From an uncultured delta proteobacterium (GTDB lineage Bacteria; Myxococcota; Myxococcia; Myxococcales; Myxococcaceae): a stretch of DNA of 64,000 nucleotides. Below the pieces are notes generated by a model, which worked only from the letters and a program-made list of their open reading frames with translations, had not been told where the DNA came from and did not search any database. Where the stretch lies: the NCBI GenBank assembly GCA_963796055.1, contig CAWCKH010000004.1, forward strand, positions 1,760,001 through 1,824,000, given 5' to 3'. How positions within the stretch are numbered: position 1 is the stretch's first letter; every line of letters begins with the position of its first letter. This document shows positions 40,652 through 59,200 of this stretch, piece by piece. Position numbers and translations under genes: made by a program.

Positions 40652-42391
40652 TCAGGAGGTCGCCGCGCCGGAATGCGCGCGTGCCTCGGGATCGGGCGCC
40701 TGCGCCGCGACATCCGCCACCTCCGCCGGGGTCACCGCGACGGGCAGCCGCGCGGCCGCGGCATGCTCCACCATGAGGCGTGCCGCGCAGACCTGGAACA
40801 GGGGACGGAGCAACAGCTTCACCACGGGGAGGAGGGTCAACGCGCGGCTCACCGCGAGCCCAGAGAACTCGAAGGGCTGTTCCTCCACCCGCTCGGAGGG
40901 GCCGTAGAACCGCCGGGCCATCCGTTCCCAGATCCGGCCCCACCAGCGGGGCAGGCCCCAGCGGAAGAGGAACACCCGCTCGGTCAGCGTGAACCACGCC
41001 CGCAGGTACCAGGGTCGGGGTGTGCTCTCCGGCGGAGCCCACGCCCGCGTGCTCCGACCCGCGGTCATCACCACCCACCAGTAAGCCCCCCACAGAGTGG
41101 TCAGCACCGTGGTGAGAATGCGGTGCGGGGGGACGAGCCATCCCACGACGGAGATCAGCGCCGCGCCGGGCAGGAACCCGAGGAAGAACTGCGCGCGCCG
41201 GTTCGCCTTCCGGCGCACCCAGGGGAGGTCGAGCCGGATCTTCGGCCGCATCGGTGGATCCTCGGGTGCCACCTGGACCAGCAGCGACAGATCGCGCGAG
41301 AGCGCATCGTGGAAGTCGCGAGACAGGGCCAGCACGCACGTCTGGGCGATCCCCAGCGACGCGTAGATCGCCGCCAGCAAGGCCAGCACTGCCCCGAGAC
41401 GGCCGGCCAGACCACGCTCATGGCGACGGGCGACCTTCAGCGCCGCCCGCGCCCGCTCCAGCCGCGCCCGCTCCGCAGCGGAGAGGGGATCGGCGCCCTT
41501 GCGCTGCAGCGCCGCCGCGTCCTTCTCCACGTGGTCCAGCTGGCGCTCGAGGCTGCGCCGCGCCCGGCGGGCCTCCCCCGAATTCTTGGGGATCTGCTGC
41601 GCCAGGGCGTCCGCGGCGATGGCGATCTCCTCCAGCCGGTCGCTCACCGCCTCGCGCTCGTCCTTGAGGTCCTGCGCCTCGTCCTCGACCTTCCCCGGGC
41701 CCTTCCCCGCACGGCGCTCCGCGCGCGCAGCCTGCTTCTTGGCCTTCTCGACGGCGGCGGCCACCAGCTCGGCGGTCCGCTTGCCGCGCTCCTCGGGGGA
41801 TGCCTCCTGGAGCGCCTTGATCTTTGCCTCGAGCGTCGTCTCGAGGTCCGTCTCGGCCAAGTCCCCGTCCTCGGCGTCCTCCTCGTCCTCGTCGGCGCTG
41901 TCCGGTTCCGAAGAGCTCGGGGCGGAGGTCGCGGGCCCTCCGGGCGTGTGCCCGGACGCACCGGCTGACGGGGGCGTCTGCTTCGCGGCAGGTGGCGGCG
42001 CCGGGACGGAGGACTTGCGCCTCGTCGGCGGCGCTGGCGGGGGAGCGAGCGCCGGGGGCTCCGACGTTGCCGTCGGCGCCCGGGGTGTCGCCTTGTCCGG
42101 TGCCGCCCCGGAAGGTGCCGGTGTGGGAGCGCCCTCGGCAGCCGGTCGGCTGCCCGCGGAGACGGGCGCGGTGGCTTCCGGCTCCTCCGGACCGAAGGCG
42201 TCGTTCCAGGCCTCGGCGCCCTGTTTCCCGACCCAGAAGATCACCAGCCCGGCCACCAGGGTCAGCGCGGCCTGGAGCAGCACCGTTCGCCAGTACCGGG
42301 ACCACAGCCGCTGGTCCTGGCGCATACGACCAATCAGCTCCCAGGGCTCGCGCACGCCGCGCCAGAACCTGGCGCCTGCCGACTCGGACAT
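40652..42391 (-). CDS. membrane protein with Pro/Ala-rich linker, coiled coil and possible EI24-like C-terminal TM region
   Basis: N-terminal TM, low-complexity segment, acidic stretch, Trp-rich TM C-terminus. Confidence 0.65.
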   Translation of the reverse strand: MSESAGARFWRGVREPWELIGRMRQDQRLWSRYWRTVLLQAALTLVAGLVIFWVGKQGAEAWNDAFGPEEPEATAPVSAGSRPAAEGAPTPAPSGAAPDKATPRAPTATSEPPALAPPPAPPTRRKSSVPAPPPAAKQTPPSAGASGHTPGGPATSAPSSSEPDSADEDEEDAEDGDLAETDLETTLEAKIKALQEASPEERGKRTAELVAAAVEKAKKQAARAERRAGKGPGKVEDEAQDLKDEREAVSDRLEEIAIAADALAQQIPKNSGEARRARRSLERQLDHVEKDAAALQRKGADPLSAAERARLERARAALKVARRHERGLAGRLGAVLALLAAIYASLGIAQTCVLALSRDFHDALSRDLSLLVQVAPEDPPMRPKIRLDLPWVRRKANRRAQFFLGFLPGAALISVVGWLVPPHRILTTVLTTLWGAYWWVVMTAGRSTRAWAPPESTPRPWYLRAWFTLTERVFLFRWGLPRWWGRIWERMARRFYGPSERVEEQPFEFSGLAVSRALTLLPVVKLLLRPLFQVCAARLMVEHAAAARLPVAVTPAEVADVAAQAPDPEARAHSGAATS

Positions 42392-42692
42392 CGGCGTCAC
42401 CTTCCCACAGCTTCCGCACAGGCCGTAGCCCCAACTTGGGGAGAACTCCTGTGGCAAACGGTGGGGAGACGGCTCAGCCCGGCCCGTCCAGCAGCGCTTC
42501 GGCCTCGGCCAGCGAGAACGCCAGGCGGGAGTCGCTCCTCCAACCTCGCCCGCCCCTTGAAGACCACCACCACCCGCTCGCGCGCCGGAAGCGCTCGGAC
42601 CTCGACCATGTGCGGCGCGAACCCTGATCTGGGCGCGGCGTCCAGGTCAATCAAACTTCCGTGTTCGGATCTGACAGATTGCAATCGAGGTG

Positions 42693-45600
42693 TCAGATCG
42701 GTCCCACCGCGGGCTCGGCTGCGGTGCGCGAGCGCTCCAGCAGTCGCTCCCAGATCCGGTACATCACCGGGAGCAGCAGCAGGGTGAGCGCACAGGCCGA
42801 CAGCGTCCCGGCCACGATGACCACCGCCAGCGGACGCTGGGTCTCGCTTCCGATGCCCCGCGAGAGCGCCGCCGGGACCAGCCCCAGCGCCGCCAGGCTG
42901 GCGGTCATCAGCACCGGTCTGAGCCGTTCCCGCGCTCCGGCGAGGATGGCCTCGTCCAGCGACTCCCCCCGCTCCCGGCGCCCGGCGATGGCCGACAGCA
43001 CCAGCACGCCGTTGAGCGAGGCCTGGCCGATCAGGGCGATGAAGCCCACCGCCGCCGAGACGCTGAGCGGGAAACCGAACGCCCACAGGCCGAACACTCC
43101 GCCCAGCAGCGCGAAGGGCACGTTGAGCAGGGTGAGGACGGCCAGGGGCAGCGAGTCGAAGGCCTTGAAGAGCAGCACCAGGGTGAGGAGCAGGGCCACC
43201 GGCACCACCGTCGCCAGCCGGGCCATGGCCCGCTCCTTGTTCTCGAACTCGCCACCCCACTCGATGGACATGCCCTTGCCCAGGGGTGCTTCGCGCTCCG
43301 CCCGCTCGCGGGCCTCGTTCACGAAGCCGCCCATGTCCCGGCCCCGCACGTTCATCCGGATGCCGATGTAGCGCCGTCCGTTCTCCCGGTTGATGCTCGC
43401 CCGTCCCACGCCGGTCTCCACCTCGGCCAGCGCCGAGAGAGGAATGGTCAAACCTCCATCGACCGGCACGCGCAGCGAGCGGATCTTCTCCACGTCGTCC
43501 CGGTCGGCCGGGGGGAGCCGGAGCACCACGTCGAACTTGCGCTCTCCCTCCCAGAAATCGGCCACCGGCCGGCCGCCGAGCGCGGTCTGGAACACGTGCT
43601 GGAAGTCGCCGAGGTCCATCCCGTATCGCGCCAGCGCCACCCGGTTCGGCTTGACCCGCACTTGAAGCACCGAGGCGCTCTTCACCAGCGCGAGATCTGC
43701 CGCGCCAGGCACCCGGGCGATGGCGGCCTTCACCTTCTCCGCCTGCGTCTGGAGCGCGGCCAGGTCGTCGCCGTACAGCTTCACCGCGATCTGTCCCTGC
43801 TGCCCGCTGATGCTCTCGTTGACGTTGTCGCGGATCGGCTGGCTGAAGTTCGCCTCGATGCCGGGAATCTCCGCGATCCGCTGCTGCAGCCCGTCCAGGA
43901 CGCCGCCCAGCGTCGGGGTCTGGCGCGGCCAGCGGTCCGGCGGCTTCAGCTTGACGAAGAACTCGAGGTTGTTGGCCAGCTTCGCGTCGGTGCCGTCCTC
44001 GGGCCGGCCCAGCTGGGAGAGCACCGATTCGACCGGAGGCGCGCCCTGCAGCAGCTGGGTGATGCGCGGCACCAGCTTCCGGCCCGCGGTGAGCGAGCTG
44101 TTCGCCGGCAGGGTGAAGGTCATGTACAGCGCGCCCTCGTTCAGCTCGGGGAGGAACTCGCTGCCCAGACTGGGCAGGACCAGCGCCGCGCCCGCGAGGA
44201 GCACGCCGACCGCGCCGATGAGCAGGGCAGGGCGGCCGAGGCAGAAGCGCAGGGTGGGCTCGTACCGTCTCGCCACCCAGGAGAGGAGCGGCGACTCGCC
44301 GTGGGTGACCGGCCTCCGCCACACCAGCGCGGCGAGGACCGGCACCAGGGTGACCGAGAAGAACAGCGCCCCGGCCAGCGCCGAGACCACGGTGTTCGCC
44401 ATCGGGGAGAAGATCCGGCCCTCCACCCGCTGGAGGAGGAAGATCGGCAGGTAGGCGGCGATGATGATCAGCAGCGCGAACACCGTCGGCCGCACCACCG
44501 CGGTGGTCGCCTGGCGGATCTTCTCCTCCACCGTCTCGGCCGAGCTCCGCGACAGCGCCATGCGGGCGAGGATGGCCTCGATGATCACCACCCCGCCGTC
44601 GACGATGACCCCGAAGTCCACCGCCCCCATCGAGAGGAGGTTGGCGCTCATCCCCCGAAGGTGGAGGTAGATGAAGGAGGTGAGCAGCGACAGCGGGATC
44701 AGCGTGGCCACGATCAGCGCCGCCCGGAGATCGAGCAGGAAGACGAAGAGGACCAGCGTCACCAGCACCGCGCCCTCGAGCAGGTTCTGGCCCACCGTGC
44801 GGAGGGTGGTGCCGACCAGATCGGTGCGGTCGTAGAAGGGATCGAGCTTCACCCCCTCGGGCGCGAGTCGCCGGTCGATGTCCTGGACCGCGGTCCGGAT
44901 GCGCCCCAGCACCGCGGAAGGGTTCTCGCCCCGCCGCATCAGCACCACGCCCTGCACGGTGTCCATCGACTCGTTGCGGCTGACCACCCCCTGCCGCGGC
45001 GCCCAGCCCTCGGTGACGGTGGCCACGTCCTTGAGGAAGACCGGCGTGCCCCCCTCGGTCGCCAGCCGGACCGCCTTGAGGTCCTCCACGCTGGTGAAGA
45101 GCCCCTCGCTGCGGATGACCAGCTGCTCGGCGCCGCGCTCCAGCACGCCGCCCGAGGCGTTCACGCTGCCGCCTTTGATGCCCTGCTCGAGCGAGGCCAG
45201 GGTCAGCCCGTGGGCGGCCAGCCGCGACGGGTCGGGCTGGACGTGGATCTCCCGCTGGAGCCCCCCGATGCTCACCACGTCGGCCACGCCGTTCACCCGG
45301 AGGAACGCCGGGCGCACCACCCAATCTTGAAGGGTCCGGAGCTTCATCGGGTCCCCGCCCGCGCCGACCAGCGTGTAGCGGTACACCTCGCCGATGGGGG
45401 TGGCGTACGGACCGAGCTGGGGGACGATGCCGTCGGGCAGGTCGGCGTCCCGGAGCCGCTCCAGGACTTGCTGCCTGGCCCACAGCCCGTCCGTCCCGTC
45501 GTTGAAGGTGAGGGTGACCGACGAGAGCCCGAACAAGGACAGATTTCGGAGCCGCGACAGCTGCGGGATGCCGTTCAGCGCCCGCTCCAGCGGCAGTCCG

Positions 45601-45794
45601 AGCTGGCGTTCCACCTCCTCGGCCGGCTGACCCGGGTAGAGGGTGATGACCTGGACCTGCGTCTCGGTGGGATCGGGGAACGCCTCGACGGTCAGGTCGC
45701 GGAACGACAGCCAGCCCCACACCGCGACGATGGCGGTGAGGGAGAGCACCGCCGCCTTGTTCTTGAGCGAGAAGTCGACCAGGTGCTGGAACAC
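42693..45794 (-). CDS. CzcA/CusA family heavy-metal RND transporter
   Basis: EAFPD, GAVDFGVIVDG, EFLPELNEG, RLRPVLMT, GSETQRPLA. Confidence 0.93.
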   Translation of the reverse strand: MFQHLVDFSLKNKAAVLSLTAIVAVWGWLSFRDLTVEAFPDPTETQVQVITLYPGQPAEEVERQLGLPLERALNGIPQLSRLRNLSLFGLSSVTLTFNDGTDGLWARQQVLERLRDADLPDGIVPQLGPYATPIGEVYRYTLVGAGGDPMKLRTLQDWVVRPAFLRVNGVADVVSIGGLQREIHVQPDPSRLAAHGLTLASLEQGIKGGSVNASGGVLERGAEQLVIRSEGLFTSVEDLKAVRLATEGGTPVFLKDVATVTEGWAPRQGVVSRNESMDTVQGVVLMRRGENPSAVLGRIRTAVQDIDRRLAPEGVKLDPFYDRTDLVGTTLRTVGQNLLEGAVLVTLVLFVFLLDLRAALIVATLIPLSLLTSFIYLHLRGMSANLLSMGAVDFGVIVDGGVVIIEAILARMALSRSSAETVEEKIRQATTAVVRPTVFALLIIIAAYLPIFLLQRVEGRIFSPMANTVVSALAGALFFSVTLVPVLAALVWRRPVTHGESPLLSWVARRYEPTLRFCLGRPALLIGAVGVLLAGAALVLPSLGSEFLPELNEGALYMTFTLPANSSLTAGRKLVPRITQLLQGAPPVESVLSQLGRPEDGTDAKLANNLEFFVKLKPPDRWPRQTPTLGGVLDGLQQRIAEIPGIEANFSQPIRDNVNESISGQQGQIAVKLYGDDLAALQTQAEKVKAAIARVPGAADLALVKSASVLQVRVKPNRVALARYGMDLGDFQHVFQTALGGRPVADFWEGERKFDVVLRLPPADRDDVEKIRSLRVPVDGGLTIPLSALAEVETGVGRASINRENGRRYIGIRMNVRGRDMGGFVNEARERAEREAPLGKGMSIEWGGEFENKERAMARLATVVPVALLLTLVLLFKAFDSLPLAVLTLLNVPFALLGGVFGLWAFGFPLSVSAAVGFIALIGQASLNGVLVLSAIAGRRERGESLDEAILAGARERLRPVLMTASLAALGLVPAALSRGIGSETQRPLAVVIVAGTLSACALTLLLLPVMYRIWERLLERSRTAAEPAVGPI

Positions 45795-45798
45795 GGAC

Positions 45799-46986
45799 CT
45801 ATTGCTCCAGCTCCAGCTCCAGCTGGTTCAGCAGGAGGATGGCGCCCTTGCTGACGTACCGCGCCCCGGGCTCGAGGCCGGCGCGGAGCTCGACCTCGCC
45901 GCTGCGCTGGCGGCCCGGGGTGACGGTCACTCGCTCCAGCTTCCCCTCGCCGCGGGAGACGAACACCACCGAGACCTGCCCGTCGGTAACCACCGCCTCG
46001 GCGGGGACCCGCACCCGCCTCTGCGATGGGTCGGACTGGAGCTCGACGTCGACGAAGGCGTTGGGGCGGAGCGCGCGGTCCTCGTTGCCCGCGCGGATGC
46101 GCACCTCGACGGTGCGCCGCTTGGGGTCGACCACCTCGGAGATGCGGTCGATGGTGCCCGGACGGATGACGCTGCCGGCGCGGGTGCGGATGGTGACCTG
46201 TCCGCCCACCCGCAAGTCGTAGGCGTCGCTCTCCTGCACGTCGGCGAGGACCAGCACCTCGGACAGCTCGGAGATGCGAACCAGGGGGTGGTCCCCGGAG
46301 GGCTGGACCTCCTGGCTCGCCACCACATCCAGGTCGACGACGGTCCCGGAGCGCGGAGCGACGACCCAGAACAGGTTGTCGCCCTCCGGTGCGATCCGGA
46401 GCGACGAGCGCTTGGCGGCCGAGGCGCGTGCGGCCAGCTCGGCCTCGTGGAGGTCCGCCTCGGCGGCGAGGGCGTCCTTCTCGGGGGCGGCGCGGATCTC
46501 CACCAGCTCGCGGGCGCGGGCGGCGATGCGCCGCTTCACCTCGACGTTCGCCCGGGCGGAGGCCATCTCCCTTTCCAGATCTGCCCATGCGGCGGAACGG
46601 ACGTTGAACAGGCGGTCGCCCTCCTGCACCCGATCGCCGATGCGGACCAGTACCCGCTCCACCCGGCCGGGCATCGGAGCGCTGAGGGAGGCGGTCCGCT
46701 TCTCGTCGAAGCTCACCCGCCCGGGCACCGGTGGCGGGGGAAGCGGCGCCGCCTCGGCGGCGGTGGCCAGCTCGACGTAGCGCCACTGCGGCGCCGTTTC
46801 GGGGATCTGGAGCGTGTTGCCCCGGACGGTGATGCGGCGGACGGGCTGGGAGGTTGCCTCGTGCTGGCGGAGCAGGAGCCAGCTGGCGGAGACCAGGGCC
46901 ACCAGGGTGACGCCGCCGCCCACCAGGAGCGAGGGACGGGCGCGCCGGAATCCCCCGAGGGTGCCGGAGCCTGCGTCAGGGGACAT
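45799..46986 (-). CDS. RND periplasmic adaptor (CzcB-like)
   Basis: N-terminal anchor, lipoyl-like GRVERVLVRIGDRVQEGD, VDPKRRTVEVR. Confidence 0.9.
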   Translation of the reverse strand: MSPDAGSGTLGGFRRARPSLLVGGGVTLVALVSASWLLLRQHEATSQPVRRITVRGNTLQIPETAPQWRYVELATAAEAAPLPPPPVPGRVSFDEKRTASLSAPMPGRVERVLVRIGDRVQEGDRLFNVRSAAWADLEREMASARANVEVKRRIAARARELVEIRAAPEKDALAAEADLHEAELAARASAAKRSSLRIAPEGDNLFWVVAPRSGTVVDLDVVASQEVQPSGDHPLVRISELSEVLVLADVQESDAYDLRVGGQVTIRTRAGSVIRPGTIDRISEVVDPKRRTVEVRIRAGNEDRALRPNAFVDVELQSDPSQRRVRVPAEAVVTDGQVSVVFVSRGEGKLERVTVTPGRQRSGEVELRAGLEPGARYVSKGAILLLNQLELELEQ

Positions 46987-48274
46987 GGGGGATGCTCTCG
47001 GGCAAGGGGGGCAGCTCCCCGGCGGTTCGGGCCTGCGCCACGGTGAGGTGGAAGGCGAAGAGGTCGAGATCGGCGGCGTCGAGCTGGAGATCGCCCAGCG
47101 TCCGTCGGGCGAGGAGGAGGTCCGGAAGGGGCGCCCCGCCGCGGGTCACGGCGCTCTCCAGCCGCTGCACCACGTCGCGGGCCAGCGGCAAGGTGCGCTC
47201 CATCAGGCGGCTCCGGCGGGCGAGGGCGGCCGCGCGCTGCTGCTCGAGGGAGGTCAGGTCGCGCACGCTCGACGCCCGGAGCAGCAGCTGCGCTTGCCCG
47301 GCGGCCTCGGCCAGAGCGGAGGCCGCCTTGGCATCCGCCTGACCGTGGTCGAAGAACGGCAGCGGCAGGCTCACGCCGACCATGACGCTCTGGTGCTGGT
47401 TGCCGGAGATGACGAACTGATCGAGCACGTAGCCGATGCGGAAGGTGGGGTCGGGGATCCACCGGTTCCTGGCGAGGTCGAGGCTGGAGCGGGCGGCGGC
47501 CTCCTGGGCCTGGAGCGAGCGCAGGTCGGGCCGCTGATCCAGCGCCGGGGCGGGAGGGCTGGCCGCGAGCCGGGCGGAGAGGAACGCCCGGGCGCCATCG
47601 GTGCTGGCGAAGGGCCGGCAGGGGAGGCCCACGGTCTGAGCGCAGAGGAGGAGCGCAGCGGAGAGCTTCTCCCGCTCCTGGCCGAGGTTGGAGGCGTATT
47701 TCTCGGCCTCGAGCACCGCCCGGTCGACGTCGAGGCCGGCGATGTCACCGCGCTTCTGCCGCTCTCGCTGCAGATCGGCGAGGCGCTGGGCATCGCGCAC
47801 CGTCTCCTCGAGCGCGCCGACGCGGATCTCCGCGGTGGCCACCTCCGAGATGCGCTCCAGCAGGTCGAACCAGCGCTGGCGCAAGGTCTCGACGGCGTCG
47901 AACAGCGCGGCGTCGCGGGTGGCGCGGCTGCCGGCCTGGCGGGGACCGCGCTTGCCGATCTCCAGCGGCTGGTTGAGGGTGAAGGTGTAGTTGGGGACGT
48001 CCTTGAGCTTGTCGAGGCCCGGGGGATTCGTTGGCCCTAAGGCCAGGGTGCCCCACTGGAAGTCGAAGCCCGGATTGGGGAAGACCTCCGAGCGGGTGAC
48101 CTCCGCCTCTGCCTGTCCGAGCCTCGCGCGCGCGGCGACGAGGTCCGGGGAACGGGTCCACAGCAGCTCGACGAGGTCGAGGTCTGCCGGGGAACTGGAA
48201 AGGTCGAGTGACTCCGGATTGGGCGCGGTGGCGGCGAGCGCCACGGCGAGAAGCCAGGAACTGCTGATCAGCAC
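46976..48274 (-). CDS. TolC/CzcC family outer membrane factor
   Basis: QPLEIGKR, RPDLRS, VSLPLPFFDHGQ; first gene of the CBA operon. Confidence 0.88.
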   Translation of the reverse strand: MLISSSWLLAVALAATAPNPESLDLSSSPADLDLVELLWTRSPDLVAARARLGQAEAEVTRSEVFPNPGFDFQWGTLALGPTNPPGLDKLKDVPNYTFTLNQPLEIGKRGPRQAGSRATRDAALFDAVETLRQRWFDLLERISEVATAEIRVGALEETVRDAQRLADLQRERQKRGDIAGLDVDRAVLEAEKYASNLGQEREKLSAALLLCAQTVGLPCRPFASTDGARAFLSARLAASPPAPALDQRPDLRSLQAQEAAARSSLDLARNRWIPDPTFRIGYVLDQFVISGNQHQSVMVGVSLPLPFFDHGQADAKAASALAEAAGQAQLLLRASSVRDLTSLEQQRAAALARRSRLMERTLPLARDVVQRLESAVTRGGAPLPDLLLARRTLGDLQLDAADLDLFAFHLTVAQARTAGELPPLPESIPHVP

Positions 48275-48576
48275 GCGGCGGCACCAGAGCAAGGAGCCTG
48301 CCACCCCGAAATTCAACGGGTTGCCACGGTCCTGGGCGGAGGGATGCCAGTTGCTTGCAGGGGCGGCTGAAGCGGCGTTTCACCGCGAGGCGGGGCGCGA
48401 ATGACAGCGGTGTGGAGCGCCGGGTGCGTCCGGCTTCCCGTCCCGGGCACCGGATGGCAGCGGCTGTCGGGGGCTGTCTTCCTCGTTCGCGCCGCGCGTC
48501 CGCGGGGTGCGGTCAATACCGTTCGCGAGCCCTCGTTGCTCTGGCTGCCAGGCGGGCTGGAGCGTAACCTCGGCGC

Positions 48577-49029
48577 ATGGCCTCATCCCTGGGCTTCGTT
48601 CCGCGGCGGCGGCCGAGCGGACTGGTCAGCGAGCACCTCGACGGTGAGGTGCTGCTGTATGTCGAGGCGACGCACAAGGCGTTCTGTCTCAACCCGGCGG
48701 CGTCGCGGGTCTGGGAGTCGATCGACGGAGCGCGGGACGTCTCGGGCATCGCCCTGCGCACCGCGCTCGATCCGGAGCTGGTCGGCGGCACGCTGCGGGA
48801 GATGGGCGAGGCGGGGCTGCTGGAGGAGGTGCCGGAGCTCCCGGGCGTGGATCTGTCGCGGCGGCGGCTCGTGCGCGCGGGGCTGGTGGCGATCCCGTTC
48901 ATCCTCGCGATCACCGTGCCCCGCGCGGCGGAGGCGGCGTCGTGCGTCACCGGCCTGCCCGGTACACCCTGCGATGACACCCACACCTGCTGCGTGGGCA
49001 TCTGCAACGCCGGGTTCTGCAAACAGTGA
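48577..49029 (+). CDS. PqqD/RRE domain fused to Tat-like leader and Cys6 knottin-like core (copy 1)
   Basis: LDGEVLLY...LNPAASRVWESIDG (PqqD), SRRRLVR + hydrophobic + AEA, then C-x8-C-x5-CC-x3-C-x4-C. Confidence 0.8.
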   Translation: MASSLGFVPRRRPSGLVSEHLDGEVLLYVEATHKAFCLNPAASRVWESIDGARDVSGIALRTALDPELVGGTLREMGEAGLLEEVPELPGVDLSRRRLVRAGLVAIPFILAITVPRAAEAASCVTGLPGTPCDDTHTCCVGICNAGFCKQ

Positions 49030-50117
49030 AACTGGACGAGGCACTGGCGCTGGCGATCGCCGGCGCGCTGCGAAGAGCCTGGGCTGACCCCGGTCCACCC
49101 CGCGTGCCGGCGGTGGACGTTCGACGCTGGGCCGAGCGCTTGGTCGAGGGTGGTGTCGCAGGGCTCGCGTGGTGGCGCATCAAGAACACCGAGATGGGGA
49201 CGCTCGCCCAGCTCTTACCGCTGCGCGCAGCGTTTCAGCACCACGCCCTGACGGCGGCCAGGCAGGAACGCGATCTTCCGCATCTTCTGGCTCACTTCAA
49301 TGCCGAAGGGATCGAGCCGATCCTGTTCAAGGGGTGGACCCTCGCGCGACTCTATCCGCACCGCGCGCTCCGTCCGTTCGGTGACTTCGACCTGCTGGTG
49401 CGGGAGTCCGAGGTCGATCGGGCCCGCACGGTTCTGCGCTCCCTCGGACCGGACCTTCAGTCGCGGGCCGATGTAGACACCGCGCGGACGCTGGCGCGCT
49501 ACCTGCCTGATCGAACGGAGGCCGAACTCTTCGGCCGTGCCCGCTCGGAGACGGCCGGTGGTGCTCGGCTCAGGACGCTCGCCGCCGAGGACCACCTCCG
49601 TCTGGTGACGCTGCACCAGCTTCATCACGGGGCCTGGCGGCCGCTGTGGCTGTGTGACGTGGCGTTGTTGCTCGAGGCGCTCCCAGCGGAGTTTTCCTGG
49701 GAGCGGTGCCTCGCAGGCGATCCACGGCTGAGTGAGGGTGTACTGGTCAGCGTGGCGCTCGCGCACGAGTTGCTCGGAGCGACCATTCCGCGCGGAGTGC
49801 CGCAGGTGGCGGTCCCCCGCTGGCTCCGACGTGCGGTGTTCCACGGATGGGCGCATGGCTACGAGAGCATGCCCCCGTCGCTGTACGACCTCCGGAAGCT
49901 GGGGTGGCCAGAGGCGGTGACGGCAATCCGCGCGCGGTGGCCGGATCCGGTGAGCGCGACGGTGCATCTTCGCGCTCCGTTCCGAGCCGTGCCGCGTCCC
50001 GTGGTCCAGCTCACGGAGTGCCTGCGCCGGGCGGCGGCTTTCGTCCGGCGTGATTTGCGCTGGCGTGCGGGTCTGGACGCGCAGCTTGCAACTGTCGGCA
50101 AGGGGGTTGTGCCGTGA
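49026..50117 (+). CDS. nucleotidyltransferase family protein (NTP_transf_5-like, copy 1)
   Basis: LFKGWTLARLYP...RPFGDFDLLV, WLCDVA; GTG overlaps the upstream TGA. Confidence 0.85.
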   Translation: MKLDEALALAIAGALRRAWADPGPPRVPAVDVRRWAERLVEGGVAGLAWWRIKNTEMGTLAQLLPLRAAFQHHALTAARQERDLPHLLAHFNAEGIEPILFKGWTLARLYPHRALRPFGDFDLLVRESEVDRARTVLRSLGPDLQSRADVDTARTLARYLPDRTEAELFGRARSETAGGARLRTLAAEDHLRLVTLHQLHHGAWRPLWLCDVALLLEALPAEFSWERCLAGDPRLSEGVLVSVALAHELLGATIPRGVPQVAVPRWLRRAVFHGWAHGYESMPPSLYDLRKLGWPEAVTAIRARWPDPVSATVHLRAPFRAVPRPVVQLTECLRRAAAFVRRDLRWRAGLDAQLATVGKGVVP

Positions 50118-53100
50118 CTGCCTGGAGGGCCCTGAGGGCCGCGCTGCTCATGGTGGCGGCGGCTAGCAGCCCGAGTCTTGCGCAGGTGACCTGCCCCATT
50201 GGGGCGAGCACGTGGCTGGACGGCGCGGGCTCGTGGGTGACCGGAACGAACTGGAATCCGACGGGGGTGCCAGCCCCGAGCGCCGATGTCTGCTTCGATA
50301 CTTCCACGGCCAACCCCACGCTCGCGGCCGGGACCACGACGGTGGGGACGCTGAACGTGCTGTCCACGGGGACCCTCACGTTGACCGGTGGCTCTCTCCG
50401 CAACTTCACGATCAACGGCGGGATCAATGCCGATGGTCCGTTCACCTTCAACAGCATCACCAATGTCATTCCCTCGGCGACTCAAAGCTGGGTGATCAAC
50501 GGGTTCGGAAGCACATTCAATTCTCCGCTATCGGTGCCGGTCCTGACTGCCGCGACGACAACGATCAACGTCACCGGGATCGCTGACCTCACTTTCAACG
50601 TGGCCGCCCCTCGGGGATTTCAGGCGTTCAACTGGGGCGCAGGCGTCCTGACCCTGACGACCAATGGGCTTGGATCAGGCACTCCGATCACCTTGAGTGG
50701 CGCGAATGCGGCACTCCTCGTCAGCTCGACGGCTGCACTGACTCTCGACAATCCCGTCATCGCCACTGCCTCCGGAGAGTTGTTGGCAGTGGACGGAGCG
50801 AGCGGTGTTCAGCACGCGCTCGGGCGTGTGACGGTCTCACCAGGCGTGACGCTCCAAGAGTTGCTGGGGGGCACGAACAACGTCAAGCTCCAGCTCGGTG
50901 GTCTCACGCTCGGCGCGGGCTCGACACTCCTGAAGCAGGACTTCGGCGGCATCTATGTCAATGGGAGCGTGTCCGACACGGCGAGCAGCACGCTGACTCT
51001 GTTCATCGGGTTCACGACCCCCACTGGCTCGCAGCTGGACGAGGGGCTGCACTTCCAGTCGAGCACGACGGTCAACTCGATCATCTCCTCCACCGCGAGT
51101 TTGAACTCGGCGATGGTCGGCGCGGACGGGGCCACCACTCTGACCCTCGCCGGTGTGGTCGATGTGGGGAACGCCGGCCGCCTGATCCTCATCCCCCGGG
51201 GCGGGGCCACCATCCTGTTCGGTCCTTCCTCGTTCAATGCACCGGGCAATCCGAACGACATCCAGCTCCGCGGCACCGCTGGCAACACCGTCGAGTTCAC
51301 CAACGCGGCGGTGACCGCGAACGCAGTCACGGTGTACGACGGGCTCAGTTTCCAGACCGACGCCAACCCACCGCCACCGACGGTCACCTTCTCCACCACG
51401 AGCGGAGCGACCTGGCGGGTTCGTAACGCGGCTCAAAGTCTCCCCGGAGCGCTCACGCTCAACGCCGCTGGGACCGTGGACACGGGAACCGATCTGACCA
51501 TCACCGGGGTGCTTGCCGGGTCCGGAGCGCTCACCAAGACGGGTGCTGGTTCGTTGACCCTCGGGCCGGGGACCCATACCCACAACGGTGGAATCACCGT
51601 GAACGCCGGGACGCTCGAGGTGGACGGAACGCTCACTGGTGAGAACACCATCAGCATCAACAACGGTGGTGGGCTCGCAGGTGCCGGGACGCTGCAGTCG
51701 GGCACCGGGCCGATCACCGTGGCAGCGGGCGCGCGCTACACGCCCGGCAGCGGCGGCACCGGAATACTCGCGACCAATGACCTGAGCCTCAGCGACACCT
51801 CGGTGCTGAACTTCACCGTGGGCACACCGACGACTACGGGTTCGGTCACCGGGGCGCTGCTCCTCGACGGCATCCTCAACATCACGCAGGGCCCGGGCTT
51901 CGCCCAGGGCGTGTACACGATCTTCACCGCGACCGCCGCGATCACCAACAACGATCTTCGTCTGGGCACGGTGCCCACCGGTTTCTCCTACGGCTACGCG
52001 GTCAACGGAAACCAGGTCGAGCTGCACGTCGGTCCGCCCCCCACGGCCGTCGAGATGGTGAAGTCCGATGCCGTCAGCGACGGCAGCTCGGCTCAGGTCG
52101 CCTGGGAAGCAGGGACCGAGGTGCGGAATCTCGGCTACCGCGTGTACCGGGAAGAGAACGGCCGTCGTCAAGAGATCAGCGGACTGATCGCCGGCTCATC
52201 GTTACGGGCGGGATTCGACCCCCTCGCCGGCCGCAACTACGGCTTTGTTGACCCGAGCGGATCGTGGGGAGCCCGCTACTGGATCGAGGCCATCGGTCTG
52301 GACGGGAAGAGCCAGTGGTTCGGGCCGGTGAACGCTCGGCGTGGAGACTTGCCCCAGACGCGTGTGCAATCCGCTGCGCTCGTGGCAAAGGTCGGGGCGT
52401 CGGCGCTGGTCGCCTCCGTTGAACGGCCCAGCGCTCGCCAGGTGGACCCACCGGGTGTCGATCGCTCTTGGCGAGATCCGAACCTGAGGCGACAGTGGGA
52501 GATCGCGGCCAGCTCGACTGCGGTGAAGCTCCTCGTCCATCAGGACGGCGTGTACCGGGTCAGCGCAGACCAGCTCGTCCAGGCCGGCCTTCCTGCGGGG
52601 ACTCCGCTCGGCTCGCTGAGGCTCTGGTCGGGCGGTAGCCCCGTCGCGTTCCGCGTGGTCGGGAATGCTGTCGAATTCTTCGGGCAGGCCGCGGACACCC
52701 GGTACACCGACACCCGGGTGTACTGGCTCACCACTGGGCTGGGCCAACCGATCTCGATCAAGGCGGCTCCGACGGCGAACGCCACGGGCGCAGCCGGCAG
52801 CTTCCTCGAAACGCTCGAGATTCGCGACCGTACGCTGTACCTCGCGGCACTCCTGAACGCAGAGACGGATGGCTTCTTCGGGGAACCGCTCATCGGAACG
52901 AGCCCGATGGAGCGCGTGTTCTCCACTCCTGCGCTGGCGGTGGTGGCGAGCGACCCCGCCGTGCTGGAGGTGAGCGTCCAGGGGCTCACCAACGGTAACC
53001 ACACGATCGACGTCACCGTGAACGGGCTCGTCGTGGGGACCGTCCACAGTGTGTTCCAGGACGTGGCGAAGGCCCGCTTCATGGTTCCGCCTGGGCTGCT

Positions 53101-54598
53101 GGTGGCGGGAGACAACAAGGTCACCCTGGTTGGGCGCACTAGCTCCGAGATCGCGATCGAGATCTCGCAGCGGCTCACCTACCCACGTCAGTACATTTTG
53201 GGTGGCCCGCTCCGTTTCACGGCTCCGACTGGATTGGCGCTGACGCTCGCCGGCGCGGACGCATCCACTCACGTCCTCGACATCACCAACGTCCTCTCCC
53301 CTGCGGCCGTCGCGCTCACCAGCACTTCGGGAGGGGCGCGTCTGATCGCTAGTGGCTCGGGTACACGCATCCTCTACGCCTACCGCGATTCCGACGTGCG
53401 CTCTCCCGCCTGGGTGCAGAACGTCTCGAGTGCCTGGCACAACTCCAGCGGCGCCGATCTGGTCATCATCGGTCAGCGGGATCTCCTACCGAGCCTCCGT
53501 CCGCTCGCGGAACAGCGGGCGAGTGAGGGCTTGAAGGTCGCGCTGGTCGACGTCACTGACGTGTACGACGAATTCTCTGCGGGCGAGAAGGATGCGATGG
53601 CCATCCGCGCATTCCTCTCGGCGGCGATGGAGCGGTGGTCGACGCCGCCCCGCTTCGTGCTTCTCGTCGGATCGGCCACCTTCGATCCGCGCGGCTGGCT
53701 CGGACAGCCGGAGCTCGACCAGGTCCCGACGGTGCTGGTGCAGACTCGCTACCTCGAGACGGCATCGGATGACGCACTCGTCACCTTCCACGGCACCGTC
53801 CCTGACTTGGCGATCGGGCGGCTACCGCTCTCCACGCCAGCGGCGATGGAAGCGGCTGTGGCAAAGATCGTCGGGCGCAAGCTGGCGGGCGGCGAGGACA
53901 CGCTGCTCCTGATACGCGATCGGGACGGCACCATCTCGTTCTCCGCAGCCTCAGCCGAGGTGCGGGCTGCAGTCTCAAGCTGGAAGGCGCAGGACTTCCC
54001 ACGCGGCGCCGATGACGCCGCTACTCATTCCGCCCTGCTTGACGCACTTCGCAGTGGTCCGATCGCCGTCGACTACCAGGGTCACGGAGCGGAGGACTTC
54101 TGGGCCGGACGGATATTGGCGTCCACGGATGCCGATGCTCTGGCCGGTGCCGGCACGAGTTCGCTCGTGGTCGCCGCCACGTGTCTGAACGCGTACTTCC
54201 TGGACATCGGTCGCGAGAGCTTGGGCGCCGCGATGCTCAGGACCCCAGAAGGCGGCGCCTGGGGCGTCTGGGCGTCCTCCGCCCTGACACTTCCAACCGA
54301 CCACGCGCTGCTGAGCAAAACGCTGCTCTCCGCGGTGCTGAACGACGGGATGACGCTCGGGGAGGCGACCCTCAAGGCCAAGCAGGCGGTGAGTGATCTC
54401 GACGTTCGTGCCACCTTCCACCTCCTCGGCGACCCGAGCGCCCGGGCCGTGGCCACGCGGAGCTCTGCACTCACGATCTCGAAGCCGAAGAGCTCCTCGG
54501 CCGGCGGCTGCAATACCCCGGGTGGTCCGCTCTCGGCGCTGGCGCCGCTGGTCTTGGCCGTCCTGGCGCTCTCGCTCCGCCGCCGCTCGGTCTCCTGA
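50114..54598 (+). CDS. large surface protein: beta-strand passenger + C25 (gingipain-like) cysteine peptidase + MYXO-CTERM-like anchor (copy 1)
   Basis: Signal peptide, LTKTGAGSLTL repeat, DVYDEFSAG, RFVLLVGSATFDPR, IGRLP, YQGHG, ATCLN, LLGDPS; GGC...TM...RRR tail. Confidence 0.88.
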   Translation: MTAWRALRAALLMVAAASSPSLAQVTCPIGASTWLDGAGSWVTGTNWNPTGVPAPSADVCFDTSTANPTLAAGTTTVGTLNVLSTGTLTLTGGSLRNFTINGGINADGPFTFNSITNVIPSATQSWVINGFGSTFNSPLSVPVLTAATTTINVTGIADLTFNVAAPRGFQAFNWGAGVLTLTTNGLGSGTPITLSGANAALLVSSTAALTLDNPVIATASGELLAVDGASGVQHALGRVTVSPGVTLQELLGGTNNVKLQLGGLTLGAGSTLLKQDFGGIYVNGSVSDTASSTLTLFIGFTTPTGSQLDEGLHFQSSTTVNSIISSTASLNSAMVGADGATTLTLAGVVDVGNAGRLILIPRGGATILFGPSSFNAPGNPNDIQLRGTAGNTVEFTNAAVTANAVTVYDGLSFQTDANPPPPTVTFSTTSGATWRVRNAAQSLPGALTLNAAGTVDTGTDLTITGVLAGSGALTKTGAGSLTLGPGTHTHNGGITVNAGTLEVDGTLTGENTISINNGGGLAGAGTLQSGTGPITVAAGARYTPGSGGTGILATNDLSLSDTSVLNFTVGTPTTTGSVTGALLLDGILNITQGPGFAQGVYTIFTATAAITNNDLRLGTVPTGFSYGYAVNGNQVELHVGPPPTAVEMVKSDAVSDGSSAQVAWEAGTEVRNLGYRVYREENGRRQEISGLIAGSSLRAGFDPLAGRNYGFVDPSGSWGARYWIEAIGLDGKSQWFGPVNARRGDLPQTRVQSAALVAKVGASALVASVERPSARQVDPPGVDRSWRDPNLRRQWEIAASSTAVKLLVHQDGVYRVSADQLVQAGLPAGTPLGSLRLWSGGSPVAFRVVGNAVEFFGQAADTRYTDTRVYWLTTGLGQPISIKAAPTANATGAAGSFLETLEIRDRTLYLAALLNAETDGFFGEPLIGTSPMERVFSTPALAVVASDPAVLEVSVQGLTNGNHTIDVTVNGLVVGTVHSVFQDVAKARFMVPPGLLVAGDNKVTLVGRTSSEIAIEISQRLTYPRQYILGGPLRFTAPTGLALTLAGADASTHVLDITNVLSPAAVALTSTSGGARLIASGSGTRILYAYRDSDVRSPAWVQNVSSAWHNSSGADLVIIGQRDLLPSLRPLAEQRASEGLKVALVDVTDVYDEFSAGEKDAMAIRAFLSAAMERWSTPPRFVLLVGSATFDPRGWLGQPELDQVPTVLVQTRYLETASDDALVTFHGTVPDLAIGRLPLSTPAAMEAAVAKIVGRKLAGGEDTLLLIRDRDGTISFSAASAEVRAAVSSWKAQDFPRGADDAATHSALLDALRSGPIAVDYQGHGAEDFWAGRILASTDADALAGAGTSSLVVAATCLNAYFLDIGRESLGAAMLRTPEGGAWGVWASSALTLPTDHALLSKTLLSAVLNDGMTLGEATLKAKQAVSDLDVRATFHLLGDPSARAVATRSSALTISKPKSSSAGGCNTPGGPLSALAPLVLAVLALSLRRRSVS

Positions 54599-54823
54599 GG
54601 CCGGACGTTGTGAACCGGCGCGCTCTGCGCCGTGGGTCACCACCGACTTGGTGGCCCGCGCCGACCCCGCATCCCACCTCTGCGGGGAATGTCGGACCGC
54701 GTCGGCAAACTACCGACTGAACTTCGAGCTCTCTCCATGTCGTCGACGCGCAGAGGCGCTTTCTCGACGGAGCGTCGGAGTGTCTGCGAGGATGCGGGCA
54801 TCGATTCTGCACCCTGACCCTTG

Positions 54824-55279
54824 ATGCCGAACCGACCCAAGGCCCGGACGGACCAGCTCCTCGTCCAGAGAACTGGACAGGACACCCTGGTCTACGACGA
54901 GCGGACCCACCGGGCGCACTCCCTCGATGCGAGGGCGGCACGGGTGTGGGAGCTCTGCGACGGCGCACGGACCGAGCCCGAGATCGCGCAGGCTTACGGC
55001 GAGGGCGCAGCAGGCGAGGCGGTGGTGAGCTGGACGCTGGCAGCGCTTGAGAAATCCGCGCTCCTCGAGGACGACAGCGGAGTGGAGGCGCGGGCGGCAC
55101 TGAGCCGGCGGGCGCTGATGAGGACCGTCGGGCTCGCGGCGATCCCGGTCATCATGGCGATCACCGCTCCGCGGGCGCGGGCGGCCGTGTCGAGTTGCTC
55201 GAACGGTGGGCAGCAGTGCTCGACGAAGCCGTGCTGCCCCATGTTGACCTGTGACACCCAGACCTTCACCTGTCAGTGA
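54824..55279 (+). CDS. PqqD/RRE domain fused to Tat-like leader and Cys6 knottin-like core (copy 2)
   Basis: DTLVYD...HSLDARAARVWELCDG, SRRALMR + hydrophobic + ARA, then C-x6-C-x4-CC-x4-C-x6-C. Confidence 0.8.
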   Translation: MPNRPKARTDQLLVQRTGQDTLVYDERTHRAHSLDARAARVWELCDGARTEPEIAQAYGEGAAGEAVVSWTLAALEKSALLEDDSGVEARAALSRRALMRTVGLAAIPVIMAITAPRARAAVSSCSNGGQQCSTKPCCPMLTCDTQTFTCQ

Positions 55280-56280
55280 CCGCGGTGGCACATCCCCTGG
55301 CGATGGCGTTGCGCGACACCTTCCGCACCCAGGCGGTCGGGCCGATGTCGCTCGCCCCTGAGCTCGTCCGCTCTGCCGAAGTGACTGGAGTCGAGGCGCT
55401 GCTGCTGCGGCGTCGAGAGGACGTGCCATCCGGGACGGAGCGCTTCCAGAGTCTGGAGTACCTTCGTCGCGAGCGCTGGCTGGCCTCGGTCTTCACCGCG
55501 CTCGAGTCCCACGGAATCCGGGCGGTCACGTTCAAGGGCTGGGCTCTCGCCCGCCTCTACGGCCGACCCGGGCTGCGGCCGGTCGGCGACGTGGACCTCG
55601 CCGTCCGTCCCGAAGACTTCGGACACGCGCGGACGGTACTCGCCGCCTTCCAGGGCGAGAACGAGGTCGATCTCCAGTCGGACCTCTCGCGGTACCTTCC
55701 TGACCGGAGCCCGGAGGCGCTGCTGACCTGCGCCCAGGCCGTCGAGGTCGCCGGTGGTCACATCCAGGTACTGGGTCCCGCCGACCACCTCCGTCTGGTT
55801 TGTCTCCACCAGCTCCACCACGGATCCTGGCGGCCTCTTTGGCTGTGCGACGTGGCGGTGCTGCTCGAGTCATTGCCGGCGGACTTCTCCTGGGCGGAGT
55901 GCCTTCATGGGAGCCGGCACCTGGGAGAGGGCGTGCTCGCCTGCGTGGGTCTCGCCTGCGAATGGCTGGGCGCAAGACCGACGGTGCCGCCGCCGGAGGC
56001 CGTCGTCCCGGAGTGGTTCCGCCGTGCGGTCGGGAGTGCATGGGACCGGGGCTACCGTCCGTCTCCGGAGCGGCTCGAGGGCATCTCGCTGGCCCGGCTT
56101 CCAGAAGCGCTCAGGGCACGCTGGCCGGATCCACTGTCCTCGACGCTCCATCTGGACGCACCTTTCCACCGGGTACCGAGACTGCCGATCCAGGTTGCGG
56201 AGCTGGTCCGCCGCAGCTCGCGCCACGCCGTCCGCCGGTGGCGGTCGCGCGGAGCGGGGGTGGGAAGGGGGGAGTCGTGA
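55276..56280 (+). CDS. nucleotidyltransferase family protein (copy 2)
   Basis: TFKGWALARLY...RPVGDVDLAV, HLRLVCLHQLHHGSWRPLWLCDVA; paralog of 49026-50117. Confidence 0.85.
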   Translation: MTAVAHPLAMALRDTFRTQAVGPMSLAPELVRSAEVTGVEALLLRRREDVPSGTERFQSLEYLRRERWLASVFTALESHGIRAVTFKGWALARLYGRPGLRPVGDVDLAVRPEDFGHARTVLAAFQGENEVDLQSDLSRYLPDRSPEALLTCAQAVEVAGGHIQVLGPADHLRLVCLHQLHHGSWRPLWLCDVAVLLESLPADFSWAECLHGSRHLGEGVLACVGLACEWLGARPTVPPPEAVVPEWFRRAVGSAWDRGYRPSPERLEGISLARLPEALRARWPDPLSSTLHLDAPFHRVPRLPIQVAELVRRSSRHAVRRWRSRGAGVGRGES

Positions 56281-59200
56281 GAAGACTGATTCCGTTCGCG
56301 TTGCTTGCAGTCGCACTGGCTGCGCCACGGGCGCATGCCGTCGCCAAAACCTGGAACGGCAGCGTCAACATCCAGTGGAACAACGGCGCCAACTGGACGC
56401 CCGCCGGAGTTCCGACCGCCGCGGATGACGTGACGATCAACGTCCCAGGCACGGTCCGGATCTCGAACAATCCGATCGCCGCCGATGCGGTCGCAGCATC
56501 GCTGACCATCGGTGCGGCGGTCACGATGAATCGCGGCAACGGCCACATCCTCACCGTGACCAACGGCATCAATGTCAACTCGACCTCTGACGTGTTGATC
56601 CAGGTGCCGTTCACCGCGGCGAGCCTGAGCAAGAGCGGCACCGGAAATCTGACCCTGAACGGAGCCGCCCTGTCCGGGACGACGCCGCAGGTCAGCGGGA
56701 CGGTCGACGTGACCGGCGGGACACTGACCCTCAACGGCGGGAACGATCTGACCACCGGCGGAGCGGTGAACGTCAGCACGGGCGCGACCCTGGCTCGCAA
56801 CGGTGCCGGCTTCCTGAACGCGGGTGGAGCGGTGACCGTCGATGGAGGAGCGATGACCTTCGCCGCCGGTGGTGGTCTCGCCGCCAGTGCGACGGTCACC
56901 GTCATGGGCGGGGGAACCGTGTCCTTCGCCGGAGGCGGCGGTCTCACCTCGGGCGGCGCGGTGACCGTCACTGGTGGGACGATGAGCTTCGCGGCCGCTG
57001 GTGGTCTCACCTCGGGCGGAGGAGTGAACGTCACCGGCGGAACGATCACCTTCGCTGGCGGTGGCGATCTCGCATCGGCGACTTCGATGGTCACCGTGGG
57101 GGCCGGCGGCACTCTGGCATTTCCCGGCAATGCCAACCTCGGCGCGGGCGACGTGATCGTGAACGGCGGAATCGTCTCCTTTGGCGGGAACGGAGATCTC
57201 ATTGCCACCGGAGGAGTGACGGTGACCGGAGGAGGGAGTCTCTCCTTCGGTGGGAACGGCGACATCACCGCTCAGAGCTTCACGCTGGCCTCGGGCTCGT
57301 CATTCACCTTGAACTTCGCCACCGGTGGCAACCCGACGAACATCAACCTCACCGGCGGGACCGGAGCCCTGGGCGGGACCGTCAACATCACCGGGACTCC
57401 GAACGCAGCCAGCTTCAACATCCTCACCGGTGCGAGCACGGTGGACATCACCGGGGTGATGCTCGGGAGCGCGCCGAGCGGATTGGCGTTCGGGTTCCGC
57501 CCACTGGGAACCAGCACCGTCGTGCTCGACGTGACGGTCAACCCCATCGCTCCGGATGGCACCGCCTCGGCCACTGGAAGCTGCCCGGGACCGATGACCT
57601 GGCAGCACACCATCTCCGCAACCGCCAACGACCGCTACCTGCTGGTCGGAGTGTCGACGGGCACCAGCGCCGTCACCCCGACGGCGGTGAGCTTCGGCGC
57701 CCAGCCAATGGGCCTCATCGCCAGCCGGGTCAATGGCAGCTCGGGCGCGTTCATCTATGGCCTGGTGGCCCCGGGGCGTGGAACGGGGACCATCACCGTC
57801 ACCCTCCCCGCAGGCCCATGCAGCGTGGTCGCCGGCTCGCTCTCGTATACGGGGGTCCTTCAGGCCAGCTCGACGGGCACCGCCGCCACCGCCGCGGGGA
57901 CGGGGACCAGCGCCTCGGCGTCGCCTTCGACCGTCCAGGGGGACAAGGTCATCGCCGTCCTGGCGTCCAACGGGGCCACCTCCGCGACCCCGCAGGCCGG
58001 AGCGACCGTCCGCTGGTCTGCGATCCAGGGCACGGTGCTCGGCGCGGGTGATACCGCGAGCCGCAGCGGGGCAGGCACTTTCAACGTGACCATGAGCTGG
58101 ACCCTGAGCCCGTCGAGCGAGTTCGCGCTCGCGTCGGTCCCCATCCATGCGGCAGCGCCCACTCGGGTGATGGAGATCGCGGCATCGGTTCGGCGCTCGG
58201 GGACGGCCCTGGCGGTGTCCGTGCGGTCTGGGCCCAGGTCGGACCTGGTGGGCTTTCGCGTGTGGCGCGAGGCCGCTGGGCAGCGTGAGCTCCTCACCCC
58301 AGGTCTGGTGGAGGGTCCGGTACTCACCTCACGGGCCAGCCTGCTGGCAGGCTCTGAGAGCGGCTGGGTCGATGCCCGACCCGTCCCCGGTGCGAACTAT
58401 CTGATCGAGGCGCTCCACCTCAACGGTCGGACCACCTGGTCGCGGGCGGCACCTGGCGCGGGTCCGGCTCCCCCCGTGGCCTCGGCTCTGCTGGCGTCGC
58501 CGGCCAGTGCGGTGGTGGTTCACCAGCCCGCGCTTCGCGTGAGCGCCGCCGAGCCCGTGTCTCGCAGATCCGCGCTGGTGATGCAGGGCACCCAGTGGCA
58601 GCTCGCCGCGGACGCCGCGGTGAAGATGAGGGTGTCCACGGCGGGCCTGGTCCGCGTCCCGGCCGAGCTGCTCTTCGCCGCCGGCATTCCCGTCGGTGCC
58701 GCGGCGTCCTCGATCCAGCTGTTCCGCGGTGGGCGCCCAGTCCCCCGGACCGTCGACGCCTCGGACGGCGTTACGCTGCGGAGCGGGGACGCAGTGGAGT
58801 TCTACGGCTACCCGATGGACACGCGCTACTCCGGCTCCGCCGTCTACTGGCTGACCGCAGGCAAGGGTGTGGGCGTGGAGGTCCCGAGCACCGGGTGGAT
58901 CGCGCCGGGCGCGGCCACCCGCTCGTATCTCGCCTCAGCCGAGGTCCGGGAGCGCCTCACCTGGTTTGGCGCCGCAAGAAACGGCGACGCCGAGAAGTTC
59001 TTCGGGCCGGCGGTCCACTCCACCGCCCGGCAGCGGACGATTCCGGTCGACGCCCTTGACGTCTCGGGGGCGGGGGCACGGCTCGAGCTCGCGTTCCAGG
59101 GTTTGACCGAGATCCCCCACGCAGTGTCGGTGAGCGTGAACGGCCTCCCTGTCGCCTCGGTGACCTTCGACGGGAATACACCCCATTCGGCGCTGGTCCC

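Follow-up and report, generated by a model that had tools for sequence, protein, structure and literature searches.

The window analyzed here, a 64,000-nucleotide stretch of DNA, carries a gene for a protein, precursor 1, in which an RRE, a twin-arginine leader and a Cys-rich core follow one another in a single chain. A second precursor gene lies nearby, together with genes for a kinase, nucleotidyltransferases and C25 peptidases. The features to which we refer below are listed here with their coordinates in the window.

39653 to 40570, + strand: HprK-related kinase, start approximate (TIGR04352, E 1e-17, far below the cut-off)
48577 to 49029, + strand: precursor 1, RRE plus twin-arginine leader plus Cys-rich core, 150 aa
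48595 to 48840, + strand: RRE/PqqD domain, about residues 7-88 (Pfam E 6e-4; Foldseek match to TbiB1, E 6e-4; VIA Z 9.0)
48856 to 48936, + strand: internal Tat-like signal S94-A120, with SRR, a hydrophobic stretch and a putative A118-x-A120 signal peptidase I site
48895 to 48915, + strand: predicted RRE-bound strand P107-x-I109...T113 within the signal (couplings 36-111, 26-107, 79-109 and 73-113; AlphaFold2 strand 109-113)
48937 to 49026, + strand: predicted mature core A121-Q150, 30 residues, six Cys, knottin-like
48940 to 48942, + strand: S122, candidate phosphoacceptor (Pro+15)
49026 to 50117, + strand: NTP_transf_5 nucleotidyltransferase 1, start overlapping the precursor 1 stop, KG and DxD motifs intact (Pfam E 4e-30)
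50114 to 54598, + strand: secreted C25 peptidase 1, with beta-strand repeats, a MYXO-CTERM-like tail and an intact His/Cys dyad
54821 to 55279, + strand: precursor 2, same architecture, 40% identical to precursor 1
55276 to 56280, + strand: NTP_transf_5 nucleotidyltransferase 2
56277 to 60761, + strand: C25 peptidase 2, start approximate
60786 to 64000, + strand: C25 peptidase 3, start approximate, continuing beyond the window

The open reading frame of precursor 1 has a GC3 of 0.91, and nucleotide 48856 is the first base of the S94 codon. The letters of the signal and core quoted in a preliminary description of this DNA are exact, namely SRRRLVRAGLVAIPFILAITVPRAAEA followed by ASCVTGLPGTPCDDTHTCCVGICNAGFCKQ, with six Cys residues in the order C-C-CC-C-C. 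The trio of precursor, NTP_transf_5 and C25 peptidase is duplicated in tandem and is followed by a third C25 gene. All four C25 genes of the genome adjoin precursors, and all four proteins keep the His and Cys residues and end in a MYXO-CTERM-like tail; the closest protein labels are Myxococcaceae. A search by sequence found no solved relative of the nucleotidyltransferase. The kinase, which is the sole TIGR04352 match in the genome, is encoded 8 kb upstream of precursor 1, beyond an efflux block; in relatives, it is encoded directly upstream of the precursor. A third precursor lies directly behind the fourth C25 protein (1858 aa; G000:C4:704882-710910, - strand) with no nucleotidyltransferase or kinase nearby.

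The usual order of the cassette is HprK-like kinase, precursor, NTP_transf_5 and C25 peptidase. In 14 loci from 13 related genomes, several of which stop at contig edges, the kinase is present in 9 (directly upstream in 6), the nucleotidyltransferase in 12 and the C25 peptidase in 10. Metagenome loci include related organisms, so the following counts are not independent; L051 and L065 stand in them without a called precursor, and L061 is left out as a duplicate. Among the listed metagenome loci with at least 600 bp, a kinase lies upstream of the precursor in 23 of 52 and is missing there in 29, and a nucleotidyltransferase lies downstream in 14 of 40. The 13 listed metagenome loci with 3 kb on each side include 8 with the kinase, 7 with the nucleotidyltransferase, 7 with the C25 peptidase and 11 with any of these. 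Glycosyltransferases and an O-antigen ligase are frequent neighbors. No immunity-like gene recurs beside the precursor among the neighbors scanned, nor is there a conserved exporter or leader peptidase among the recurring neighbors; a dedicated SpI-like peptidase and an MsbA-like exporter are absent from the locus and the recurring neighbors (67 proteins scanned, 65 of them from the 92 listed neighbors).

Two other candidate partners were considered and rejected. One metagenome locus (L060) encodes a kinase, three tandem precursors with differing cargo, a MauE-domain protein and a nucleotidyltransferase; MauE appears in this one metagenome locus, and none of the genome's five weak MauE matches lies near the precursors, which argues against MauE as a fixed partner at the precursor 1 locus. 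The interval between the kinase and precursor 1 (40652 to 48316, - strand) holds a membrane protein without a Pfam match and the CusA/CusB/TolC-like efflux block, and just upstream of the kinase is a 65-aa His-rich ORF (39330 to 39527, - strand) with repeats, possibly a metal-binding peptide. The efflux block is present in some relatives of the same genus and absent in G003 and other lineages. A metal link through the adjacent CusA block was discarded, since the block is lineage-specific and the RND proteins near the precursors of other genera look, by eye, to be of a different type.

The N-terminal part of precursor 1 is PqqD-like (Pfam PF05402), with an E value of 6e-4 that lies under the curated cut-off. 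An AlphaFold2 model of the whole protein, built with 109 sequences (pLDDT 88.6, pTM 0.74), confirms the N-terminal domain as an RRE fold, a predicted winged arrangement of three strands and three helices that is closest in structure to two lasso-peptide RREs, TbiB1 and 6jx3 (both at Z 9.0, with 75-77 residues superposed at an rmsd of 1.8-2.0). Across the family, this domain carries Cys residues in HCLN (71%) and CDG (80%), which are residues 37 and 49 in precursor 1, and Leu81, Trp46, Asp50 and Gly51 look invariant.

The family of precursor 1 is large and occurs in uncultured bacteria. Among 499 candidates we found 84 close homologues, and in an alignment judged by eye the RR pair is kept in 83 of these 84 and the six-Cys frame in 80, the exceptions being fragments or frameshifted-looking sequences. 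Clustering at 50% identity gives 460 clusters at E values up to 1e-10 and 3271 at E values up to 0.001, the weaker of which are possibly ordinary PqqD proteins. Of the 301 sampled genomes of the phylum, 10 contain full-length matches, and the remaining matches there cover the RRE only. The homologues carry the source labels Myxococcaceae, Vicinamibacteria, Pyrinomonadaceae and Tectomicrobia; the taxonomy of the family is taken from these labels and from Atlas clusters, as alignments from the search of named genomes were too variable and a search there with a single distant protein gave one locus. Plasmids yielded no family match, and longer fusion forms were absent among 2181 candidates, which is weak evidence. 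Selection on the core was avoided by scanning metagenomes with a motif for the RRE only, which returned at least 123 stretches. The matches listed comprise 126 distinct sequences, of which 113 are long enough to be read and 107 contain a P-x-x-x-S-I-x-A-P box.

The preliminary description regarded the sequence from residue 94 as a Tat-like signal in an unusual, internal position, and this is supported: RR stands upstream of the box in 105 of the 107 RRE-motif matches listed, and 4 of the 6 without the box likewise show RR. Among the matches listed, the signal follows the pattern S/T/N-R-R-polar-V/M/L/A-V/I/L/M-R/K, with S, T or N at position -1 of the RR in 101 of 105 and R or K at +4 in 86 of 105. 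A small-x-small site follows the second Pro in 61 of 66 matches listed, and Ala occupies P+13 in 88 of 107. Two homologues, L088 and L147, have R-S in place of the twin arginine with the remainder of the leader intact. The TIGR01409 model is weakly matched by 26 of 109 members and Pfam TAT_signal weakly by only 9 of 109, and TatC is encoded in the genome. In the Tat consensus Phe is usual at RR+2; this position is Phe in 0 of the 105 matches listed and V, M, L or A in 102. The missing Phe, the homologues without RR and the fact that RRE binding (described below) already explains the hydrophobic stretch would suit a cytoplasmic RiPP, in which RR and the hydrophobic stretch serve for recognition by enzymes instead of forming a Tat signal and the product leaves otherwise or stays inside. 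We regard this as quite improbable, given the combination of S/T/N-R-R-x-hydrophobic-hydrophobic-R/K with an AxA site, the paired Cys residues, which need an oxidizing compartment, and the lack of a conserved exporter or leader peptidase among recurring neighbors.

An internal start that would yield a plain Tat prepeptide was rejected, as a Met lies 12 or fewer residues before xRR in only 33 of 132 sequences. The preliminary description also supposed that the RRE is removed or bypassed before export. Linker residues 87-93 are variable and without a conserved cut site, so we favor retention of the RRE in the cytoplasm, the simpler route, over its prior removal. The available sections of one report document an internal Tat signal for the Streptomyces Rieske protein and state that unfolded linkers are tolerated (PMC13186574). 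Post-translational export would suit a substrate that needs prior modification.

In a mean-field coupling analysis of 453 sequences, C123-C139 ranks first and F36-A111 second among long-range pairs. Without the query's clade, the 36-111 pair still reaches a z of 7.7 (375 sequences), compared with 2.7-3.7 in 8 row-shuffled controls, and the couplings 26-107, 79-109 and 73-113, which come next, fall in the same cleft. His36 is paired with Ser or Thr111 in 301 of 302 sequences. In precursor 1 the pair is instead Phe/Ala; 25 sequences differ at both positions, and they split into 24 groups at 55% identity. No weight was given in this contrast to the motif-selected rows, since the motif itself fixes His36. 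Position 36 lies on strand 3 and positions 73-79 on helix 3 of the RRE, and the beta3/alpha3 cleft is the leader site of RREs in the sections available of two reports (PMC7470986; PMC13381572). Moreover, P107-x-I109 matches the Px[L/V/I] of lasso and LPP leaders, minus the aromatic residue. A complex prediction for the RRE (1-88) and the leader (89-123) gave a score of 0.03 with controls that did not fold, and it counts neither for nor against binding.

Because covariation places P107-T113 in the beta3/alpha3 cleft of the RRE, we infer that the signal doubles as the RRE-bound leader. The earlier proposal that the RRE acts on its own chain is thus supported by the couplings, with binding in cis and a domain-swapped dimer fitting the covariation equally well. 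That the RRE appears to grip the hydrophobic part of the signal itself had been missed, as had the kinase in the cassette and the candidate phosphoacceptor S122.

The position of S122 recalls the LPP leaders, whose consensus is YxxPxVLxHQxIxFETxxS, with 15 residues from the Pro to the Ser, S3, that an HprK kinase polyphosphorylates; the same report, in its available sections, states that LppK does not accept S3T, that LppN had no detectable effect in a heterologous test, that the clusters lie in capsule loci and that the Tyr or Trp of [Y/W]xxP is important for binding to LppB (PMC13381572). In pseudomycoidin, the NTP transferase PsmN is needed for addition of a hexose to the phospho-Ser, according to the available part of its description (PMC6993621). 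In the family described here, the residue at P+15 is Ser or Thr in 87 of the 107 matches listed, and 16 of the other 20 have Ser or Thr at P+16. A second set gives 113 of 118, including 31 of 35 without an adjoining Cys. This residue is S122 in precursor 1, likewise a Ser in precursor 2, and a Thr in about 46% of the motif-selected matches listed. The aromatic residue at P-3 is replaced by V, I, L or A in 102 of 107 matches listed.

Small residues are common after signal peptides, so the Ser or Thr at P+15 may be partly structural. This fits the view that the product is an exported disulfide mini-protein with an unmodified core, for which the fused RRE is only a Tat holding chaperone, and that the kinase and nucleotidyltransferase act elsewhere, for example on envelope glycans or the C25 proteins. 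It is indeed common for a precursor to have no such enzymes beside it, as with the third precursor of the genome, and the cassettes often lie in glycosyltransferase loci. We nevertheless consider this view improbable, since the gene order kinase-precursor-nucleotidyltransferase is fixed across taxa and the P+15 Ser/Thr reproduces the LPP spacing and is kept where no Cys adjoins it.

With respect to the core, the C-C-CC-C-C pattern turns up 28 times when the genome is read in all six frames (11 million residues) and never in 3 shuffles of the residues; 15 of the 28 occurrences lie in evident genes, namely the 3 precursors, 11 repeats of one protein and 1 in another. In the 66 complete matches listed, the cargo has six Cys residues in 46, with the exact frame in 31, and 0-12 Cys in the others; the count is even in 64, zero in 2 and odd in 0. 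The 20 four-Cys variants among the matches listed all lack both C1 and C4. Thus, the I-IV pairing is backed both by the top-ranking C123-C139 coupling and by the joint loss of C1 and C4. A model of the core has a pLDDT of 83.5, and 7 of its 7 VIA matches are knottins (rmsd 1.2-1.9 over 26-29 residues), with Z scores of only 2.0-2.4; Foldseek gave one weak match to the core and none under E 0.001. The preliminary description's assignment of the core to the inhibitor cystine knot framework therefore stands as a knottin-type spacing, with a predicted fold at these modest Z scores and Cys residues that look paired rather than metal-bound. Of the three outcomes by which the preliminary description would have been refuted (absence of a knotted disulfide fold, metal binding by the Cys residues, RR not conserved in homologues), none was observed.

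Because Cys counts are never odd, C1 and C4 are lost jointly and the core model matches only knottins, the Cys residues most probably form disulfides rather than binding metal or, at C123, carrying a lipid. A metal-binding peptide could be suspected from the CusA-type efflux block and His-rich ORF between and beside the kinase and precursor in the genus, and a Tat lipoprotein from the resemblance of AASC to a lipobox. Both are highly improbable: C123 pairs with C139 and the two disappear jointly, and other lineages lack the efflux block.

The conotoxin likeness of the core, which the preliminary description stressed, suggests a secreted knottin toxin or inhibitor directed against eukaryotic or bacterial targets. 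The cores are hypervariable, and a core profile matches venom and plant knottins (best E 2e-5). The same profile matches protease inhibitors, antimicrobials and Dickkopf alike, resting on Cys spacing, and no immunity-like gene recurs beside the precursor. Furthermore, the cargo ranges from 0 to 12 Cys residues or consists of collagen-like repeats, and the module is found 11 times in tandem in another protein of the genome, so the toxin interpretation does not hold up well and we judge it very improbable. The tandem protein is a probable lipoprotein with no NCBIfam match (L185:4431-6353; G000:C4, about 854430-856350, + strand). A single C-terminal knottin-like module ends a 609-aa secreted-looking protein with 36 Cys and N-terminal Cys repeats (L186:2029-3855, + strand), which adjoins a Cys-rich gene. 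The cargo of L095 and P0196 consists of Cys-free, collagen-like Gly-Pro-Thr repeats. With 11 tandem copies in the probable lipoprotein and one in the secreted-looking protein, it appears to be a general extracytoplasmic module here, with no sign of toxicity. Rather than a weapon, the product is most probably part of the cell envelope.

Taken together, the reading we prefer, and which we consider somewhat better than an even chance, is that precursor 1 chaperones itself and gives rise to a disulfide-knotted peptide that is exported and probably phosphorylated, by a phospho(glyco)peptide pathway resembling that of LPPs, with the RRE in cis and export by Tat. Once folded, the RRE would hold P107-x-I109...T113 from the same chain in its beta3/alpha3 cleft and so cover the hydrophobic portion of the Tat signal, a step that covariation and the model make probable. 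By analogy and from the spacing, the RRE-leader unit would, slightly more plausibly than otherwise, present S122 to the HprK-like kinase, as LppB and LppA do to LppK. The nucleotidyltransferase might then cap the phosphate with a hexose as PsmN does, a tentative suggestion drawn from analogy. The freed signal would fairly probably engage TatC through the RR, with the RRE staying in the cytoplasm and signal peptidase I cutting after A120. In the periplasm, the core would probably form three disulfides, of which I-IV is directly supported and II-V and III-VI follow from the fold. Finally, and speculatively, the neighboring surface-anchored C25 proteases might act on the product at the cell surface, by processing it or attaching it there, which we think rather unlikely. 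A bolder form of this scheme, which we also hold to be unlikely, is an undescribed and widespread export-and-tag system in which each precursor's own RRE is a Tat proofreading clamp that retains the signal until the kinase and NTP transferase have placed a phospho-sugar on the second residue of an exchangeable cargo, after which the knotted peptide is joined to the cell surface by a PorU-like C25 transpeptidase.

We compared the family with known systems. In its workings it resembles an LPP or a paeninodin tailoring system, without being an LPP. As far as the available sections describe the LPP system of Bacillota (PMC13381572), both have an RRE, a kinase resembling HprK, an uncharacterised NTP transferase, a conserved leader with a variable C-terminus, a P-x-V motif, 15 residues from Pro to Ser, leader removal (predicted here) of the signal-peptidase type and a setting in polysaccharide loci. 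The family described here differs in that the RRE is fused to the substrate, the leader has a twin-arginine motif and no Tyr at P-3, the core is disulfide-rich, the partner is a C25 protein, the phyla are others, and no dedicated SpI peptidase or MsbA exporter is found among recurring neighbors. Paeninodin and pseudomycoidin tailoring (PsmK and PsmN) likewise uses an HprK-like kinase and an NTP transferase, there giving phosphate and hexose on a Ser according to the sections available (PMC6993621), and the lasso B1 proteins are the closest structures to the precursor 1 RRE; here, however, no macrolactam synthetase or B2 peptidase was seen, and the acceptor would lie near the start of the core rather than at the C-terminus. 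With the HPr-rel-A cassette (NCBIfam TIGR04352/TIGR04353) the family shares a kinase adjoining a PqqD-like gene, and both models are weakly matched, but the scores are far under the cut-offs (53-73 bits for kinases versus 200) and the PqqD model, 74 positions long, includes neither a signal nor a cargo.

Among RiPPs that carry a general export signal, bufferins come closest: from the portions available of two reports (PMC11626156, PMC12452194), they are modified in the cytoplasm, contain Cys and are periplasmic. They differ in having an N-terminal Sec signal, dispensable for modification on overexpression, MNIO chemistry and an RRE on a partner protein (PMC11626156, same portions). With inhibitor cystine knot peptides (omega-conotoxins, spider toxins, plant and sponge knottins) the core shares the C-C-CC-C-C spacing, the I-IV pairing and the predicted fold, but the family here is bacterial and RRE-fused, with no evidence of common ancestry or target. 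Our literature search found no description of an RRE-signal-core fusion, and the available sections of the daptide and RRE-Finder papers do not mention one; supplements, such as the RRE-Finder cluster figures, could list members. New here are the binding site derived from covariation, the agreement of P+15 with the LPP spacing and the tight link to C25 in the genus.

If the preferred reading is true, thousands of entries that bear only the name 'PqqD family protein' would turn out to be RiPP-like precursors, each carrying an RRE of its own, and the family would join leader recognition and Tat export in one sequence. S122 would be a single testable site for orphan HprK-like kinases, and members of the family may be the natural substrates of two groups of enzymes, the uncharacterised NTP_transf_5 family and the C25 proteases that lie outside type IX secretion. 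The family would also show that cystine-knot-type peptides are common in bacteria. Were the bolder export-and-tag scheme true, it would provide an RRE that acts on the chain it belongs to, a Tat signal that serves as the leader of a RiPP as well, and knottins from bacteria in large supply.
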